Source: Chloroflexota bacterium
GTDB lineage: Bacteria > Chloroflexota > Limnocylindria > Limnocylindrales > CSP1-4
DNA: 64,000 bases
Reading direction: 5' to 3'
NCBI GenBank assembly: GCA_005889475.1
Contig: VBGT01000051.1
Coordinates: 1,859 to 65,858, forward strand
The translations under genes and the position numbers were made by a program. Position 1 is the stretch's first letter; every line of letters begins with the position of its first letter. Positions 3,095 to 38,018 of the stretch are shown one piece after another. The notes below the pieces were generated by a model. It worked only from the letters and a program-made list of their open reading frames with translations, had not been told where the DNA came from and made no database searches.

Positions 3095-3502
3095 GTGAAC
3101 ACCACTGATCTCGAGGCTCGGCTCTCGAAGCTGAGCCCGCTCCAGTACGCCGTGACCCAGGAGGGTCAAACCGAGCGCGCCTTCACCGGCGCCTATTGGA
3201 ACAACCACGCCGACGGGACCTACCGTTGCGTCGTATGCAACTCGCCGCTGTTCGACGCGGGCACGAAGTTCGAGTCCGGCACGGGCTGGCCGAGCTTCTA
3301 CGACGTGATCGAGAACGGCCGCGTCGCCACGAAGGAGGACCGCTCCTTCGGCATGCGTCGCATCGAGGCGACCTGCGCGAACTGCGGGGCGCACCTCGGC
3401 CATGTCTTCGAGGACGGGCCTCGCCCGACCGGCCTGCGCTACTGCATGAACTCGGCGTCGCTCGACTTCGAGCCGAAGAGCGAGAAGGCCGCGGCCGGCT
3501 AG
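3095..3502 (+). CDS. msrB: Peptide-methionine (R)-S-oxide reductase MsrB
   Basis: 135 aa. Canonical MsrB motifs YRCVVCNSPLF...GWPSF...CANCGAHLGHVFEDGP with both CxxC pairs. Confidence 0.92.
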   Translation: MNTTDLEARLSKLSPLQYAVTQEGQTERAFTGAYWNNHADGTYRCVVCNSPLFDAGTKFESGTGWPSFYDVIENGRVATKEDRSFGMRRIEATCANCGAHLGHVFEDGPRPTGLRYCMNSASLDFEPKSEKAAAG

Positions 3503-3570
3503 AACCCCCGGCCGAGAGCGGCCGGCGAGGGCCGTGAAGGGATCCGGCCCTCGGGGTTCGCCTGTCCTTT

Positions 3571-3720
3571 CGTTCATCAGAGGTTGCTTGTGCCCCCCGG
3601 AAGGGTCACCTGAGCCCAGGGCACGGCCCTCCTGCGGTGGGCGGCTCACCGCATGGTCCATCCGCCCACTGGAGACCGAGCACCGACCCGCTCCCCGGGT
3701 GTAAGCATCCTCTGATGGAG
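3571..3720 (+). repeat. Structured ~150-nt intergenic repeat element, copy A (terminal 22-bp inverted arms plus an internal hairpin). The homologous copy B lies inverted at 7724..7873.
   Basis: 5' arm cgttcatcagaggttgcttgtgccc pairs with 3' arm gggtgtaagcatcctctgatggag (one mismatch in 22 bp). Internal hairpin gtgggcgg...ccgcccac. The ends are near-identical to the reverse complement of copy B. Confidence 0.6.
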
Positions 3721-3794
3721 ATCGCGGGTGGGCAGGACGAGGGAGTGCAGCCGCCACGCCGCAACGTTTCCGCCGATCGGGCCGTAGGTAGGCC

Positions 3795-4400
3795 GTGATC
3801 GAGAGCGAACGCGACCGCGCCGCCGACCAGGCCTACCGCGATCACGCCAACGACGTGTACCGCGTCGCGTACGGGATCCTCCGCGACCCGGACGAGGCGC
3901 TCGACGCGACGCACGACACGTTCGCGCGCGCCTGGGAGCGCTGGGACCAGTACGACCGCCAGCGTCCGCTGCGTGGCTGGCTGCACGGCATCGTGGTCCA
4001 TCTCGCGCTCGACCAGCTCCGTCGGCGACGGGTCCGCCGGCTCGCGCTGCCCGTCCTCGGCCGCGCGACGGCCTCGCTCGAGCGCACGACGCAGCCCGAT
4101 CCCGCCGATGACGTGACGCGCCGCCAGCTCGTCGAGGCGGCCCTGGACGGTCTCCGCCCCGAGGTCCGCGCCACCCTGGTCCTGCGCCACTTCTACGGCT
4201 ATGACTACGCCCAGATCGGGACGTTCCTGGGGATCAGCAGCGGCACCGTCGGCTCGACGCTGTCGCGCGCCCACGCCGCCATCCGCCGACGACTCGAGGC
4301 CGAGGATGCGTCTGCACCCGGCGAGTCGAGCCCCGCCACCAGCCCGACGCTCGCGGCGCGCCGCGGCACGTCGACCGAGCCGCCCGAGGTGCTCCGATGA
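3795..4400 (+). CDS. ECF (sigma-70 family) RNA polymerase sigma factor
   Basis: 201 aa, GTG start. Region 2 (YRVAYGILRDPDEALDATHDTFARAWE) and region 4 (LRHFYGYDYAQIGTFLGISSGTVGSTLSRA) motifs. Stop overlaps the downstream ATG (ATGA). Confidence 0.88.
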   Translation: MIESERDRAADQAYRDHANDVYRVAYGILRDPDEALDATHDTFARAWERWDQYDRQRPLRGWLHGIVVHLALDQLRRRRVRRLALPVLGRATASLERTTQPDPADDVTRRQLVEAALDGLRPEVRATLVLRHFYGYDYAQIGTFLGISSGTVGSTLSRAHAAIRRRLEAEDASAPGESSPATSPTLAARRGTSTEPPEVLR

Positions 4401-6133
4401 CCCGCGATCCCCACGCCAACGCCCTCGACGACGCGACGATCGAGCAGCTCGTCCGCGACGTGGCCGGCTCGTGGACGATGCCGCCGGTCCGGCTCGACGC
4501 GCCCAGCTGGCGCGACCGGGTACGGAGGCCCGGTGCCCGCCGGCTCGCCGTCGCGGGTGGCTGGCTGGGCCGCTTCGGCCAGGCCGCGACAGCGGCGGCC
4601 GCGCTGACCGTCGTCGGCGCCCTGATCGCCGTCGTCCTGACGCACCCCCCGACGGAGCCGGGCAAGAGCCCGCAGCCCTCGACCGGCACGACGCCGGGCC
4701 CGACCAGGGGCGCACAGGCCACGCCGCTGCCGAAGATCCTGCTCGCGGGCGACGAGCCGAACCCCGCCGTGGTCGTCGTTCGCACCGAGCGTGGTGACTA
4801 CGCCCGCGTCGACCTGGCGACGGGCTCGATCGACGGGCCGCTGACCAGCAAGAGCTCGTCCAGCGAGCTGCGGCTCCAGGGCGGCGGGACCATGGTCTGC
4901 CTGTGCGTCTCGGAGTCGGGGAGCATCGGTGGGATGCCCACGGATAACTCCGTGAGCCTCGACCGCTACGACTCCCGGGGCAAGTTGACCTCCAGCTCGC
5001 CGATCCAGTCCTTCTCGGGCGAGCCCGACCCGCGCGACGTGGGCGAGCTGATCCCCGACAAGCCGGCCCACGTCCTGACCAACATCGGCTACAGCCCCGA
5101 CGGGCGCTATGGCTTCGTCGGCTGGAGCGTGCGCGCCCATCCGGTCTGGCAGAGCGGCATCGTCGTGGTCGACATGCGCGACGGGTCGGTCGTCAGCCGC
5201 CTGGCGCTGCCCGACGCGAGCGACGGCGAGGGAGATGCGCGCCGGGTGGTCACGGCGCCCGGCGTCGTCGGCTCGATCGGCTCGAGCAGCGTGGCGGTCG
5301 CGCGGAGCTGGTACGAGTGGACACCTGCGGCGTCGCTGGAGCCCAGTTATACGTTCGAGAACGACGTCTTCACCGCGAAGCTCGGCGACGGCACCTTCTC
5401 GGATCTCGCGCCGGTGCGGCTCGCCAGCGATTGCGGTGCGACGGTCAACCGCGCCGGCGCGCTGCCCGAAGGAGGCTTCTGGCTCGCCTGCACGCAGGGT
5501 GGCGCGGAGCTCACGATCGTGCGCCGGCTCGCGGCCGACGGCTCGCTGCTCGGCGACGTCCGGGTCAACGGTGGTGTCGGCATCGATGCCGATCCGACCG
5601 CACTGAGCGACAACGGCGCCACCCTGTACGTCTGGGATCCCTCCGGCGCCACGCTGACCGGGGTCGATCTCGCAAAAGGGACCAAGACCTCGGGCAAGGG
5701 CATCGCGGCGGCCGGGGACGGCCCGCTGTCGGCGCTCGGGCATTGGCTCGCTCCCACCGCAGCTGCGAAGTCGTTCCTGCGCGGTGCGCTCGCGATCTCA
5801 CCTGATGGGTCGCGGATCTACGCCATCGGCGTCAAGGGCGGGGGCAGCTCGCACGAGATGGCGGGCTCGACGGGCGTGTTCGTGTTCGACGCCGCGTCGC
5901 TCGAACCCGCGGGGGTCTGGCAGCCGACCGCCGACTACGTCTCGCTCGCGGTCAGCGCCGACGGCCGCTTCGTCTACGCCGCGGGCCTGCCCGGGATCGA
6001 CGCGGCCGGCGAGCGGCAGCTGGACCAGCAGGCCTCGATCACGGTCTACGACACGACCGACGGCTCGGTCCGGCTCATCGCCGGCCGTCTCGGCGGCGAC
6101 ATGCTGTCGTTCATCTCGAGCGCCCTGAACTGA
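4397..6133 (+). CDS. Putative membrane-anchored anti-sigma factor with a large extracytoplasmic beta-propeller-like domain
   Basis: Translationally coupled to the ECF sigma gene. Cytoplasmic N-terminus, a single TM (AAAALTVVGALIAVVL), then ~480 aa with repeated DG..YA.G / LYVWD beta-propeller-like motifs. No zinc-binding HxxxCxxC motif. Confidence 0.6.
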   Translation: MTRDPHANALDDATIEQLVRDVAGSWTMPPVRLDAPSWRDRVRRPGARRLAVAGGWLGRFGQAATAAAALTVVGALIAVVLTHPPTEPGKSPQPSTGTTPGPTRGAQATPLPKILLAGDEPNPAVVVVRTERGDYARVDLATGSIDGPLTSKSSSSELRLQGGGTMVCLCVSESGSIGGMPTDNSVSLDRYDSRGKLTSSSPIQSFSGEPDPRDVGELIPDKPAHVLTNIGYSPDGRYGFVGWSVRAHPVWQSGIVVVDMRDGSVVSRLALPDASDGEGDARRVVTAPGVVGSIGSSSVAVARSWYEWTPAASLEPSYTFENDVFTAKLGDGTFSDLAPVRLASDCGATVNRAGALPEGGFWLACTQGGAELTIVRRLAADGSLLGDVRVNGGVGIDADPTALSDNGATLYVWDPSGATLTGVDLAKGTKTSGKGIAAAGDGPLSALGHWLAPTAAAKSFLRGALAISPDGSRIYAIGVKGGGSSHEMAGSTGVFVFDAASLEPAGVWQPTADYVSLAVSADGRFVYAAGLPGIDAAGERQLDQQASITVYDTTDGSVRLIAGRLGGDMLSFISSALN

Positions 6134-6215
6134 CCTTCGGCGGGCTGCGTCCCGCCCACGGGCAGCGTCCCGCGACGCGCGGCGCCACGCCGTCGCGCGC
6201 CGCTACCCTCCAGCG

Positions 6216-7481
6216 GTGCTCGCGACCGCCCGCACCCGGCTCGGCGCGATCGCCGCCGAGATCGACCGATCGATCGCCATCCTGGCGCTCCTTTCGTTCA
6301 TCTCCCAGGTCGGCGTCTCGATCATGCTGCCGCTGCTGCCGCTGTACGCGGTGGCGGTCGGGGCGACACCGGCCGAGGTCGGGCTCATGGTCAGCGTGTT
6401 CTCGGTGACCTCGACCGTCGGCCAGCTCGGGTCGGGATTCCTGAGCTCGCGGATCTCGGCCCGCCGACAGATGCCGCTCGGCCAGGCGGTCTACGCGACC
6501 GGCAACTTCCTCATCGCGACGACCACCGCGGCGCTGCCATTGATCACGTTCCGGGCGCTGTCCGGGCTCGGTGGCGGGCTGACGATCATCGCCGAGCGGC
6601 TGTACATCGCGCGGGTCACGGTCCAGTCTCGGCTCGCGTTCACCAACGGCGTCGTGTCCGCCGCGGCCTCCTCGGGGTCGGTGCTCGGTCCGCTGCTCGG
6701 TGCCGTGCTCGCGCTGCACGACCTGCGCGTGCCGTTCTTCGTCGTCGGTTGCACGGCGACGGTGGCTGGGGTCGCCGCCTTCCTGTTCCTGCCGGCGCAG
6801 CGCCATCTTCCGGCGGGAGAGCCGTCGGCCGCCGCGACGGTCATGCCGGAGGCGGTCGAGCTCGTTCCCGGCGTCGAGGCGCCCGCGACGCCGGCCGTCG
6901 AAGCGAGCCCCAGCCGCTGGGAGCATGCCTCGCCGCTGGTCCGCCTCGCGATCTGGAGCGTGGCGTTCAACGCCGCCTACGGCAGCTGGATCACCACATT
7001 CGGGCCGTATTCGAAGGACGTCCTCGGCCAGCCCCAGGTGTTCGTGCAGCTGTTCTTCGCGCCGTTCGGGCTGGGCGCGATCGTGTTCGGCCCGATCCTC
7101 GCCCGACTGGCGGATCGAACCGGCCGCCGGCGGATGGTGGCCATCGGGACGGTCATGTTGCTGTCGAACATCGTGGCGCTGATCGTCGGCGCGCCGATGA
7201 TCGTGCTGTACGCCTCGGCGGCGATCGCCGGGGGCGGGCTGGCGGCCGCGCAGTCGGCGTGGTTCGCGCTGCTCGCCGTGGCCACGGACTCCGGCCGGCG
7301 CGGCCGGTCGTTCGGGCTCGTGAGCGCGCTGTCGAACCTGGGCGTCATCGCGGGCGCCTCGGTCGCGTCGAGCGCGTGGTCGGCGATCGGTCTGCGAGAG
7401 GGGATGGTGAGCGCTGCCGTCTTCCTCGTCCTGGCGATTGCCTCGCTGGCGCTCGTCCCAAGCGACCGCGCGCGCGGCTAG
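6216..7481 (+). CDS. MFS transporter
   Basis: 421 aa, about 12 TM segments. Matches the MFS conserved-loop pattern (LSGLGGG...). GTG start. Confidence 0.8.
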   Translation: MLATARTRLGAIAAEIDRSIAILALLSFISQVGVSIMLPLLPLYAVAVGATPAEVGLMVSVFSVTSTVGQLGSGFLSSRISARRQMPLGQAVYATGNFLIATTTAALPLITFRALSGLGGGLTIIAERLYIARVTVQSRLAFTNGVVSAAASSGSVLGPLLGAVLALHDLRVPFFVVGCTATVAGVAAFLFLPAQRHLPAGEPSAAATVMPEAVELVPGVEAPATPAVEASPSRWEHASPLVRLAIWSVAFNAAYGSWITTFGPYSKDVLGQPQVFVQLFFAPFGLGAIVFGPILARLADRTGRRRMVAIGTVMLLSNIVALIVGAPMIVLYASAAIAGGGLAAAQSAWFALLAVATDSGRRGRSFGLVSALSNLGVIAGASVASSAWSAIGLREGMVSAAVFLVLAIASLALVPSDRARG

Positions 7482-7562
7482 ACTCAGCGCATCGACCCGC
7501 TTGGATGCGGGTCACGGTACGGGAGGTCGATCCGGGTGAGTCATCACGATAAGGCGGGAGCC

Positions 7563-7622
7563 ATGAAGAAGGCCGCGCCGGTCAAGAAGTCCGCAGCGAC
7601 CAAGAAGACCACCAAGAAGTAG
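7563..7622 (+). CDS. Candidate 19-aa lysine-rich small ORF (MKKAAPVKKSAATKKTTKK)
   Basis: ATG preceded by AAGGCGGGAG (GGAG about 7 nt upstream). An in-frame stop lies 3 codons upstream, so this is the maximal ORF. Two hairpins follow immediately downstream. Confidence 0.35.
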   Translation: MKKAAPVKKSAATKKTTKK

Positions 7623-7659
7623 CCACCCCGACCCTCCACCGCGAGGGTCGTTTCAGTTC

Positions 7660-7695
7660 CGAAGGGGGCCTGCCGGGCCCCCTTCGTCATTCCTC
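7660..7695 (+). terminator. Stem-loop (11-bp perfect stem cgaagggggcc/ggcccccttcg, 5-nt loop) followed by tcattcctc
   Basis: Perfect hairpin 40 nt after the small ORF stop. A second 7-bp hairpin (gaccctc/gagggtc) lies at 7630..7650. Confidence 0.5.
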
Positions 7696-7723
7696 GCCGA
7701 CCTTGCAACCCCTTCCGGACCTC

Positions 7724-7873
7724 TTCCATCAGAGGTTGCCTGGACCCGACGAGCCCCTCCCAACCCGGGGCCGGGCGGGCGGATGGCCCATCCGCTGAGC
7801 TGCGCATCGGACGAGGGCCCTCTTCCGGACTTCCCCCCGCCCTCCAACGGGCACAAGCAACCTTTGATGAACG
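7724..7873 (-). repeat. Structured ~150-nt intergenic repeat element, copy B (inverted relative to copy A)
   Basis: The reverse complement begins cgttcatcaaaggttgcttgtgccc (24 of 25 nt match copy A's 5' arm) and ends gcaacctctgatggaag. Internal hairpin gcggatgg/ccatccgc corresponds to copy A's atggtccatccgccc. Compensatory changes preserve the long terminal stem. Confidence 0.6.
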
Positions 7874-7885
7874 ATCGGCGGCCGC

Positions 7886-8467
7886 CTACCGATCTTCGGC
7901 CACGTTCCAGCGCTCGATCACGCTCTGCTCTCGCTCCCAGCCGAGCACCGAGATCGTCGCCGTCGCAAGCTCGAAGAGCCGCCCGTCGCGGACCGGGAGC
8001 CCGAGCCAGCGCGCGGTGAGCGCGCGGAGCACGTGGCCGTGCGCGAAGGCGAGCGCATCGCCCTTGCCCGCCCGGACTCGGGCGATGACCCGGTCGACAC
8101 GGGCGGTGACGTGGCGCGCCGTCTCGCCGTCCTCCGGCCCGTCGCGCCAGATCGTCCAGCCCGGGCGCGCCGCGCGGATCTCCTCCGTCTTCCGGCCCTC
8201 GTCGGCGCCGTAGTCCCATTCGCGCAGGTCGTCGGTGACCTCGACCCGGCCGCCGAAGCCGGCAAGGCGCGCGGTGTCGAGGGCGCGCGACATCGGGCTT
8301 GACAGCACGAGTCCGAAGGCCCGTCCGGCCAGCCGTCGCCCGACCGCCTCGCCTTCGGACCGTCCGCGGGCGGTCAGTGGAACGTCCGTGTGACTCGTGT
8401 GCCGCCCAAGCCGCGCCCACGTCGTCTCGCCGTGCCGGACGATCCAGAGCTTCGGCGCCGGGTCCAT
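7886..8467 (-). CDS. Histidine phosphatase family protein (phosphoglycerate mutase-like)
   Basis: 193 aa. N-terminal RHGET catalytic motif (LWIVRHGETTWA) and downstream GHV...H motif. Confidence 0.85.
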   Translation of the reverse strand: MDPAPKLWIVRHGETTWARLGRHTSHTDVPLTARGRSEGEAVGRRLAGRAFGLVLSSPMSRALDTARLAGFGGRVEVTDDLREWDYGADEGRKTEEIRAARPGWTIWRDGPEDGETARHVTARVDRVIARVRAGKGDALAFAHGHVLRALTARWLGLPVRDGRLFELATATISVLGWEREQSVIERWNVAEDR

Positions 8468-37665: not shown

Positions 37666-38018
37666 GGTCAGCGAGGCGGCCGGATGGCCGCGCGCCGGCG
37701 GGGCAACCCGACGGCGTGAGGAAAGTCCGAGCTCCACAGCGCGAGGTAGCGGGTAACACCCGTCCGCCGCGAGGCGAGGACCAGCGCCACAGTGACGATG
37801 CCGGCGCCTCGGCGCCGGAGTGAAACGCGGCAAGCTCTACCCGGAGCAAGGCCAAATAGGAGGGCGACCACCCGGTTCGCCGGGACGGGCGCGCTGCCCA
37901 GCCCTCGGGTCGGCCGCATGAGCCGTCGGGTGACCGACGGCCCGAGATGGATGGCCATCGCCGAGCCGTTTCGACGGCGAGGCACAGAACTCGGCTTACA
38001 GGCCGCCCTCGCTGACGT
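37666..38018 (+). ncRNA. rnpB: RNase P RNA (bacterial type A)
   Basis: Universally conserved blocks GGAAAGTCCGAGCTCCACAG, GGGTAACACCC, CGGAGCAAGGCCAAATAGG and ACAGAACTCGGCTTACAG. P1 pairing gtcagcgaggcggcc/ggccgccctcgctgac. TTAGAAT -10 lies about 8 nt upstream. The overlapping ORFs are spurious. Confidence 0.9.

Follow-up and report, generated by a model that had tools for sequence, protein, structure and literature searches.

The ECF sigma/anti-sigma/MFS module in the 64-kb stretch of DNA analysed here (the window) lies between two inverted sequences of about 150 nt, and the locus raises the question of what these sequences are and whether they belong to the module that they enclose. Our results suggest, with a probability of roughly 55%, that the two sequences, copies A and B, are diverged members of a small, non-coding, non-autonomous palindromic repeat family of the MITE kind, with an anatomy closest to that of ERIC and Correia elements. 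The family was previously uncatalogued, it forms hairpins, and its copies are recent insertions next to gene ends in one soil lineage. Strict membership among the MITEs is not established, as there is no clean target-site duplication and private flanks came along with the cores. The copies and their ends are located as follows.

3571..3720, plus strand: copy A, 150-nt palindromic core, 68 nt past the msrB stop (3502) and 74 nt before the sigma GTG (3795).
3570..3595, plus strand: left end of copy A, TCGTTCATCAGAGGTTGCTTGTGCCC, invariant 26 nt, 5' arm of the closing stem.
3697..3719, plus strand: right end of copy A, GGGTGTAAGCATCCTCTGATGGA, 3' arm of the closing stem, with three consecutive G.U/U.G pairs on the plus strand.
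7724..7873, minus strand: copy B, 150-nt palindromic core, 12 nt past the present phosphatase stop codon (7886-7888) and co-oriented with the phosphatase gene.
7849..7874, minus strand: left end of copy B, invariant 26 nt.
7725..7747, minus strand: right end of copy B, 3' arm of the closing stem.

The two copies aligned over 150 nt without gaps at 68-69% identity (blastn E 1e-10), confirming the preliminary description of two copies in opposite orientation, and a family profile matched each of them at E about 1e-43 (nhmmer). The left end TCGTTCATCARAGGTTGCTTGTGCCC (3570-3595) recurred as its reverse complement at 7849-7874 with 25/26 positions matching, and a 21-mer taken from it had no match in 100 shuffles of the window. 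The ends had been described as nearly identical over 25 nt, which is true of the left end, whereas the right ends (3697-3719 and 7725-7747) differed at several positions. MITEs are defined by terminal inverted repeats (TIRs), a length below about 200-400 bp, an RNA that folds into a long stem-loop, and a frequent location at gene 3' ends (PMC3184786). Here, inverted ends of 23-26 nt enclose a 150-nt core, in keeping with the TIRs and the short non-coding core (< about 400 bp) of such elements. A template/variable-repeat pair of a DGR was also considered and rejected, since in the alignment the differences between A and B were of all kinds and not restricted to adenines.

A third copy, C, was found on another soil contig (L012, positions 115-264, and L031), about 70% identical and again gapless. 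It lies downstream of an ORF for a 68-aa membrane protein and adjoins an AlkZ-like gene, a context unrelated to that of A or B. The left end was identical across the three copies save for one R position, and the ends of the family element read TCGTTCATCA... and ...TGATGGAAG. None of the three known loci can be the source of another, because they are about 30% diverged from each other. No further member was detected with the nhmmer profile and covariance model R1 in the window and about 214 kb of related loci. The 64-kb window has 2 copies, and about 150 kb of relatives had none. An exact pattern of both ends had no match in the contigs of 185,579 species genomes, and in JGI metagenome contigs it matched only B, C, and six chance sequences. 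The left end by itself gave only six chance matches in unrelated phyla as a 19-mer searched in species genomes, and no match in viral contigs as a 20-mer. Similarly, blastn found no match of A in plasmids or of B in phages. A parent IS would share the terminal sequence TTCATCAGAGGTTGC..., and no transposase or parent IS with these ends appeared in the plasmid, phage, viral, genome, and metagenome scans.

Known RNA families did not account for the elements. At gathering thresholds, Rfam 15 reported only RNase P and one tRNA in the whole window, both elsewhere; up to E 10, the best sub-threshold matches at A and B had E 0.07 or worse, far below gathering scores; and ARAGORN found neither tRNA nor tmRNA at the elements. 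A coding element was rejected as well. A 43-codon GTG...TGA frame runs through B and C and meets a stop after 7 codons in A, and the resemblance of its peptides is confined to the stretches encoded by the conserved DNA ends. Translations of the three copies in all six frames, searched against a protein database to catch other copies annotated as spurious ORFs, matched nothing at E up to 10.

The history of the insertions was read from relatives. Eight syntenic relative loci (L021/22, L023-25, L026/27, L028, L029, L030, L034/35), with phosphatases 79-93% identical, retained the sigma/anti-sigma module with a conserved ECF-type promoter and contained no element, and the element was also absent from the relative of the C site (L032). 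The following features describe the occupied sites in the window.

7702..7901, minus strand: block missing from the empty B sites, from comparison with L028, L029, L030, and L034.
7687..7701, minus strand: fossil of the ancestral phosphatase 3' end, GTCGGCGAGGAATGA (VGEE*), no longer coding, flanked by B and by the terminator hairpin.
7660-7686: old terminator hairpin, following the remnant GTCGGCGAGGAATGA.
3503..3744, plus strand: block of about 242 nt from the msrB stop to the start of the relatives' homology upstream of sigma.

The empty B site in L028 and L029 reads TGGAACGTCGGCGAGGAATGA and then the terminator. The inserted B block is 200 nt long in the window and 241 nt in strains L001-L004, and is composed of the core, a private 5' flank of about 28 nt, and a private 3' flank of about 22 nt (63 nt in L001-L004). 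The present last codons of the phosphatase gene and its stop (…VAEDR*) come from the 5' part of this block. In L028 and L029, 15 nt identical to the fossil form the phosphatase gene end and directly abut the matching hairpin. The A block (3503..3744) likewise consists of copy A with private flanks of 68 nt and about 25 nt; at its position, between msrB and sigma, L023 carries an Eis-like acetyltransferase gene, and L021 and L028 have such a gene upstream of sigma. The block inserted at C is about 530 nt long and includes a small promoterless ORF 5' of the core. The flanks within the inserted blocks are not common to the family. Judged by these comparisons, the elements are lineage-specific insertions and the sigma module is ancestral, because relatives keep the module without an element, the B site is empty in them, and the old gene end is retained in the window. 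Filled versus empty sites have been taken as evidence of MITE mobility (PMC3184786). The suggestion of a MITE-like mobile repeat was thus borne out by a dispersed third copy, empty sites in close relatives, and the lack of an Rfam family; dispersal over three loci in unrelated contexts together with filled and empty sites is what a MITE family presents, and the copy number seems low.

The search for target-site duplications, proposed in the preliminary description, revealed no clean one and no direct repeat abutting the core in A, B, or C. At the B block the best candidates were an imperfect repeat, TGGAACGT / TGCAA(G/T)GT (6/8), or a degenerate gene-end repeat of ~11-15 nt. The inserted blocks exceed the conserved core (200-241 nt at B, ~242 nt at A, ~530 nt at C), which speaks against simple TIR-to-TIR cut-and-paste.

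Missing duplications and private flanks would both be explained if the core were a folded single-stranded-DNA recombination site (attC-like or IS200/IS605/IS110-like), moved with short variable cargo by a tyrosine/HUH enzyme or a site-specific recombinase. Inserted units made of a core and non-conserved flanks, with the small promoterless ORF 5' of the core at C, would suit such a site, as would the orientation relative to the upstream ORF, which was consistent in 3/3 copies. Integron attC sites and ORF-less cassettes share this anatomy: the palindrome is imperfect and of comparable size, its ends are conserved around a centre that varies, and it follows an ORF on the 3' side. Their mobile unit is likewise a variable sequence plus a palindrome. 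However, the ends of the present elements do not fit the R''/R' core consensus of attC (RYYYAAC / GTTRRRY). The copies do not form a direct-orientation array, with A and B being inverted and 4 kb apart, and private sequence flanks the core on both sides. The contig gene tables around the copies list no integrase, Y1/HUH, or IS110-type gene, and DNA hairpins do not favour the G.U-type mismatches described below. An integron attC was rejected on these grounds, and a recombination site in the wider sense is improbable.

The preliminary description had further proposed that the inverted copies could mediate inversion or mobilisation of the enclosed cassette. The outward-facing ends of A and B are their two best-conserved 26-mers, 25/26 identical and inverted, as would befit a bracket that mobilises the sigma/anti-sigma/MFS cassette in the manner of a composite transposon or is prone to invert it. 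However, relatives without either element have the sigma/anti-sigma(/MFS) module at the same site and in the same orientation, and module divergence tracks that of the flanking genes. Identity to L028 was 94% for sigma, 84% for anti-sigma, and 92% for the phosphatase; since the sigma and anti-sigma values compare with that of the phosphatase, the module was inherited vertically. No inversion was seen in the four strain contigs that span both elements (L001-L004), and with 69% identity and a longest exact match of about 20 nt, A and B would be a poor substrate for homologous recombination. Such a bracket is very improbable and is largely refuted as the origin of the module. The placement on both sides of the module reflects two nearby insertions, and a functional link to the module is not demonstrated.

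Copy A had also been regarded as a possible leader of the ECF sigma gene, and its position 74 nt upstream of the sigma start on the same strand would be compatible with a cis-regulatory riboswitch or attenuator of the sigma operon. However, the interval between A and sigma, downstream of A, holds a conserved promoter-like block of ECF type, GCAACGTTT-N13-CCGTAGGTAGGCC, which runs right up to the GTG, and relatives without the element keep both the sigma gene and the GCAACGTTT...CCGTAGGTAGGCC-GTG block. In addition, neither B nor C is upstream of any co-oriented gene, and B lies between convergent genes. A small uORF running from an ATG in the right end of A to the GTGA at the sigma start was considered and rejected, being frameshifted in strain L001. 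The leader role therefore has a next to negligible probability, and the sigma promoter is likely the conserved block immediately upstream of the GTG start. In annotating the locus, neither a regulatory RNA nor a mobile cassette should be read into the bracket around the ECF sigma module.

The strongest competitor of a MITE-like family is a structured RNA with a function of its own, acting within a 3' UTR or as a processed small RNA. Its fold would be under selection and its spread paralogous rather than selfish, and the invariant 26-nt 5' arm could serve for protein binding or base pairing. Each copy does form a closing stem of 20-22 bp, in line with the stem of about 22 bp reported earlier. 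With both strands of A and B included, fold z-scores lay between -3.1 and -4.8, and on the strand co-oriented with the upstream gene between -3.4 and -4.8, with energies of -80.7 kcal/mol for copy A (z -4.8) and -83.2 kcal/mol for the minus strand of copy B. All three copies (3/3) are co-oriented with the upstream gene, and standard pairs occupied 97.8% of closing-stem cells on the sense strand versus 82.2% on the antisense strand, a difference due to mismatches of the G.U type; this strong asymmetry of G.U against A.C counts in favour of an RNA. The absence of indels among three copies 30% diverged points in the same direction.

Covariation gave little to this competitor. The compensatory substitutions previously claimed for the closing stem were not found: two-sided changes occurred in 0/20 pairs, with 16 pairs never varying, 3 varying on one side only (A-U or G-C to G.U), and 1 broken in some strains, so that the changes were one-sided and mostly to G.U. 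Similarly, the internal hairpin of the preliminary description corresponds to a block of conserved sequence (GCTCA...CCAYCCGCCC) whose pairing partners change between A, B, and C, and the single-sequence folds of the three copies disagree on the inner helices in general. There, 13 inner-helix cells were changed on both sides and the covariation score was reached in 0/500 shuffles, a control that related sequences without structure are known to exceed. However, the count of pairs changed on both sides was unremarkable, as 62/500 shuffles reached it. Among three independent sequences, two-sided changes affected 5 inner pairs, with some cells broken, and the RNAalifold covariation term was only -1.45 kcal/mol.

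Comparison among strains also argues against a selected fold. Strains differed by 2-3.3% in A and 0-2% in B, versus 0-1.5%, mostly under 1%, in the neighbouring genes, so these within-population changes accumulate faster than those in coding DNA, and they include changes that break stem pairs (C to G at column 142; GG to AA in the inner stem). Such fast change after insertion is as expected of decaying insertions whose end conservation derives from their source copies. Furthermore, none of the relatives at 79-93% protein identity carries the element, it has no conserved promoter on its upstream side, and no Rfam family matches it. A scan for sigma-70-type promoter-like sites found none anywhere in 3300-8100. 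Taken together, the structured RNA family of the preliminary description keeps the G.U strand bias in its favour, faces weak covariation and pair-breaking changes in the population, and is an unlikely, minority possibility.

For a MITE-like family, the invariant left end would be the recognition site of the moving enzyme, and the right end would be constrained only to pair with it. Mobilisation was probably in trans, by a transposase or recombinase. Insertion took place independently just downstream of msrB and of the histidine phosphatase gene in the lineage of the window, the B element entering the last phosphatase codons upstream of the terminator hairpin. In line with the shared orientation and the G.U strand bias, each copy would be co-transcribed with its upstream gene and fold as a long 3' UTR hairpin, whose ~22-bp closing stem could block 3'-exonucleases or be an RNase III target, and so alter the stability of the upstream mRNA. 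A more speculative variant, to which we give little credence, is a new low-copy mobile hairpin that targets extreme gene 3' ends just upstream of terminators. A unit of ~200-250 nt (core, private sequence, and replacement stop codon) would be inserted without target duplication by a single-stranded, hairpin-dependent recombinase of a type new to these elements and then serve as an RNA-level 3'-UTR module; if this were true, DNA mobility and RNA function would both be selected in one family.

Although the small palindromic repeats of Proteobacteria, Neisseria, pneumococci, and cyanobacteria have been described well, those of uncultured high-GC soil bacteria are poorly known. To the latter the present family contributes a case in which filled and empty sites are clear; through one of its insertions (B), a gene acquired new last codons, and the former gene end persists as a fossil. 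If the strand-biased G.U pairs reflect real selection at the RNA level, the family would also lend itself to the study of a mobile element that works as a 3'-UTR stability module.

Among known systems, the ERIC/IRU elements of Enterobacteriaceae, imperfect palindromes of about 127 bp classed as MITEs, are similar in size, have conserved inverted ends, and are low-copy in some genomes. Both families are intergenic at gene 3' ends, are predicted to yield a long stem-loop RNA preferentially in one orientation, and can influence how the upstream mRNA decays, which is a prediction in the present case (PMC3184786). They share no sequence similarity, and the present family differs in its high-GC soil genomes, its insertions with private flanks, and the absence of ERIC-type TA target duplications. 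The Correia elements of Neisseria (CREE/NEMIS), of about 104-157 bp, resemble the present family in their 26-bp terminal inverted repeats, in the hairpin RNA formed when co-transcribed (here predicted), and in filled and empty sites between close strains that show mobility. However, Correia elements number in the hundreds, show TA duplications, and carry an IHF site and promoters, whereas the present family has 3 known loci, no duplication, and no sigma-70-type site in the scanned interval. REPINs, inverted REP doublets mobilised by RAYT, also have two inverted conserved sequences of ~25 nt around a variable spacer in one long hairpin, lack target duplications, and are lineage-restricted (PMC3116915, PMC3337134). 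They usually occur in tens to hundreds of near-identical copies, need a RAYT gene, and are known mainly from Proteobacteria. The spacer of the present family is about 100 nt long.

The two inverted repeats around the ECF sigma/anti-sigma/MFS module, copies A and B, are homologous, aligning across 150 nt with zero gaps at 68-69% identity, and a family profile search of the 64-kb window recovered each of them with E ~1e-43 and found no further member. The preliminary description was therefore correct as to the existence and coordinates of the repeat. Our main reading, to which we give a probability of roughly 0.55, is that these copies and a third from metagenomes (copy C) belong to a new family of palindromic repeats, MITE-like and low in copy number, members of which recently and independently inserted beside two neighbouring gene ends and probably lie in 3' UTRs as long hairpins. 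The repeat matched no Rfam family at gathering thresholds or permissive E-values, and holds no tRNA or tmRNA; the only gathering-level Rfam matches in the window were an RNase P RNA and one tRNA gene.

Copies of the repeat and RNA genes elsewhere in the window
3571-3720, plus strand: copy A, from the gapless alignment with B
7724-7873, minus strand: copy B, from the gapless alignment with A
115-264 of metagenome contig L012, minus strand: copy C, from the both-ends pattern in JGI metagenomes
37672-38015, plus strand: bacterial class A RNase P RNA, Rfam gathering-level match, 171.7 bits
59266-59338, plus strand: tRNA gene, Rfam gathering-level match

The near-identical ends described earlier hold for the left end, TCGTTCATCARAGGTTGCTTGTGCCC, where A and B agree at 25/26 positions, whereas the right end (GGGTnnArGCAwCCTCTGATGGA) varies more. 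The left-end 21-mer had 0 matches in 100 shuffles of the window. The two ends pair in each copy into a closing stem of 20-22 bp, and the sense-strand RNA, read along the gene just upstream, folds at -80.7 kcal/mol (z -4.8) for A and -83.2 kcal/mol (z -3.4) for B, with somewhat weaker antisense folds. Compensatory changes had been proposed for this stem, but 0 pairs are altered on both sides: among 20 pairs, 16 are invariant, 3 show one-sided changes (to G.U) and 1 is broken in some strains. Likewise, what was taken for a conserved internal hairpin is a block conserved in sequence, with a different pairing in each copy. Folded as DNA, the copies form the same closed hairpins at about -40 kcal/mol. 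We regard a recombination element that depends on its hairpin (attC, IS200 or IS110 type) as unlikely.

All three copies share the orientation of the gene just upstream (msrB, the histidine phosphatase and a small ORF, respectively). Standard pairs fill 97.8% of closing-stem cells in the sense structure versus 82.2% in its antisense mirror image, because the imperfections, with few exceptions, are G.U instead of A.C; counted by independent events, this imbalance is about 6 to 1. These results suggest, short of proof, that the transcript of the source elements was under selection. At gene 3' ends, ERIC and Correia elements are transcribed with the gene and form long RNA hairpins that alter mRNA decay (PMC3184786), and the position of the repeat at gene 3' ends and its G.U-biased stem fit this behaviour. 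The same features bear on the reading of the repeat as a functional RNA module, which we consider rather unlikely. Covariation in the inner helices is weak (RNAalifold term -1.45 kcal/mol; n=3 independent sequences), and the 5 inner pairs changed on both sides occur with broken cells, such a number being reached in 62/500 shuffles.

The source of the window is an uncultured high-GC soil bacterium, whose best-named homologues are in 'Actinomycetota bacterium' MAGs, and near-identical strains carry the locus in 7 metagenome contigs. L001-L004 hold both A and B, and L005, L006 and L036 (B side only covered) hold B. Across these sister strains, divergence is 0-1.5% (mostly <1%) in neighbouring genes, 2.0-3.3% in A and 0-2.0% in B. 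In 3 strains, a closing-stem G-C pair is lost to a C to G change, GG to AA in L001 breaks two pairs of the inner stem in the single-sequence fold of A, and one A to G change yields a G.U pair. The faster divergence and the fold-weakening changes indicate that the rate of change in the inserted copies equals or exceeds the neutral rate. The ends, strongly conserved from copy to copy, must owe this to the source lineages, as expected of mobile DNA that needs its ends in order to move. Divergence also reaches 8% in the 74 nt that separate A from the sigma start, mostly within the first 25 nt; this stretch (3721-3745) has 6 differences between two strain groups (the window and L002 vs L001, L003 and L004), and is a local hypervariable patch or recombination tract.

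The family is clearly not abundant, and probably occupies more than three loci. The exact both-ends pattern gave 0 matches in 185,579 species genomes, in which the left-end 19-mer had only chance matches in unrelated phyla, and blastn found no match in plasmid and phage collections. In the JGI metagenomes, the pattern recovered B from a sister strain and added a single new locus, copy C; the remaining six matches were low-GC chance matches. Such scans are blind to copies with one mismatch in either 13-mer, and strain variants of A were missed for this reason. Copy C is exactly 150 nt long, has ~70-73% identity to A and B, carries the identical invariant 26-mer and recurs in a 99% sister strain (L031). 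Its context differs: it follows, by ~50 nt, a 68-aa membrane-protein ORF next to an AlkZ-like glycosylase gene and a GH18 gene. In a relative (L032), 8 nt separate the AlkZ-like stop codon from that of a convergent hydrolase gene, and in L012 ~530 nt, the small ORF plus copy C, occupy this place.

The B site gives a clean natural history of an insertion which, together with the corrected annotation of the sigma locus, is the main value of a finding that is real but ordinary in kind. The phosphatase gene of two relatives, L028 and L029, ends in ...CGCTGGAACGTCGGCGAGGAATGA and directly abuts a terminator hairpin, CGAAGGGGGCC...GGCCCCCTTCG; a third (L034, 93%) has the same gene end plus one additional codon. 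On the minus strand of the window, the phosphatase reads ...CGCTGGAACGT, followed by 200 nt without counterpart in relatives (7901 down to 7702), then GTCGGCGAGGAATGA at 7701-7687 and the relatives' hairpin at 7686-7660. What was once the phosphatase end is therefore still there as a non-coding fossil, and the current last codons and stop (VAEDR*, stop 7886-7888) are supplied by the inserted DNA. The insert comprises the 150-nt core with ~28 nt of 5' flank and ~22 nt of 3' flank. A and C do not share these flanks beyond a slight likeness (GCGGCCG..GAT preceding B and C; GCG.G.GGGCAGG...CGAGGG following A and C). No clean target duplication was seen at B, the best candidates being TGGAACGT vs TGCAA(G/T)GT, or a degenerate repeat of the gene's final 11-15 nt. 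The inverted terminal repeats, the size, the dispersal and the existence of filled and empty sites bear out the earlier comparison with MITEs, but a strict MITE is not established, given that no target duplication is seen, the flanks are private and no parent transposase is known. Near this site, L001-L004 and L036 carry 41 extra nt, a CGGCGCGCCCCAAGCCCGTCGTGAGAGGAGGGTCACCCCC-like segment, 3' of the B core (window ~7706; L001 ~2660-2700) that the window lacks. L036 also has a phosphatase allele with a short internal segment replaced (~1780-1840; 98% identity over 78% of the protein) and an unchanged copy B.

At the A site, the window has 242 nt (3503-3744) including copy A, and lacks an Eis-like acetyltransferase gene (Acetyltransf_9/17 plus SCP2_2 domains; L023 14477-16167 region) that lies between msrB and sigma in L023 and upstream of sigma in L021 and L028. 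The L023 site also has a lower-GC intergenic stretch of ~420 nt. ECF promoters have AAC at -35 and CGT at -10. A block, GCAACGTTT-N13-CCGTAGGTAGGCC (3762-3794, plus strand), sits immediately before the sigma GTG (3795), is kept in relatives L021, L023 and L028, and looks like a candidate ECF-type autoregulated promoter of a leaderless mRNA. Copy A, lying upstream of sigma, had been proposed as its regulatory leader; the promoter-like block is 3' of A and is kept in relatives without A, so this role is contradicted and we consider it extremely improbable.

The two inverted copies had also been thought able to mobilise or invert the enclosed cassette. Syntenic loci were fetched through phosphatase homologues of 79-93% identity (L021/22, L023-25, L026/27, L028, L029, L030, L034/35), and neither nhmmer nor a covariance model found the element in any of them. 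The sigma gene is present in every contig reaching far enough, the phosphatase is convergent with the anti-sigma gene in all, the MFS gene is kept in L023-L025, and msrB is kept in L023 with its relative orientation unchanged. Between L028 and the window, identities are 94% for sigma, 84% for anti-sigma and 92% for the phosphatase; this comparable divergence shows that the module was inherited vertically at the same site and not brought by the repeats. A composite-transposon or inversion bracket is contradicted by these comparative data and is very unlikely.

Between the anti-sigma gene and the phosphatase lies an indel hotspot. The MFS gene (window 6216-7481) has 85% identity to that of L023, and is deleted in L028 (~1100-1180), L029, L030 and L034, with about its last 30 nt remaining beside the anti-sigma stop. 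The 578-aa protein at 4397-6133 (plus strand), coupled translationally to the sigma gene by an ATGA overlap (4397-4400), has no Pfam or NCBIfam match and diverges much faster than sigma in the same relatives (65-86% vs 87-94%); this protein is presumably an anti-sigma factor whose extracytoplasmic domain is large. A 28-aa lysine-rich ORF at 7536-7622 (plus strand; GTG start, VSHHDKAGAMKKAAPVKKSAATKKTTKK) has no NCBIfam match, a GGGAGG Shine-Dalgarno 9 nt upstream and two hairpins after it; its conservation in L023, L028, L029, L030 and L034 suggests that it is probably a real small protein.
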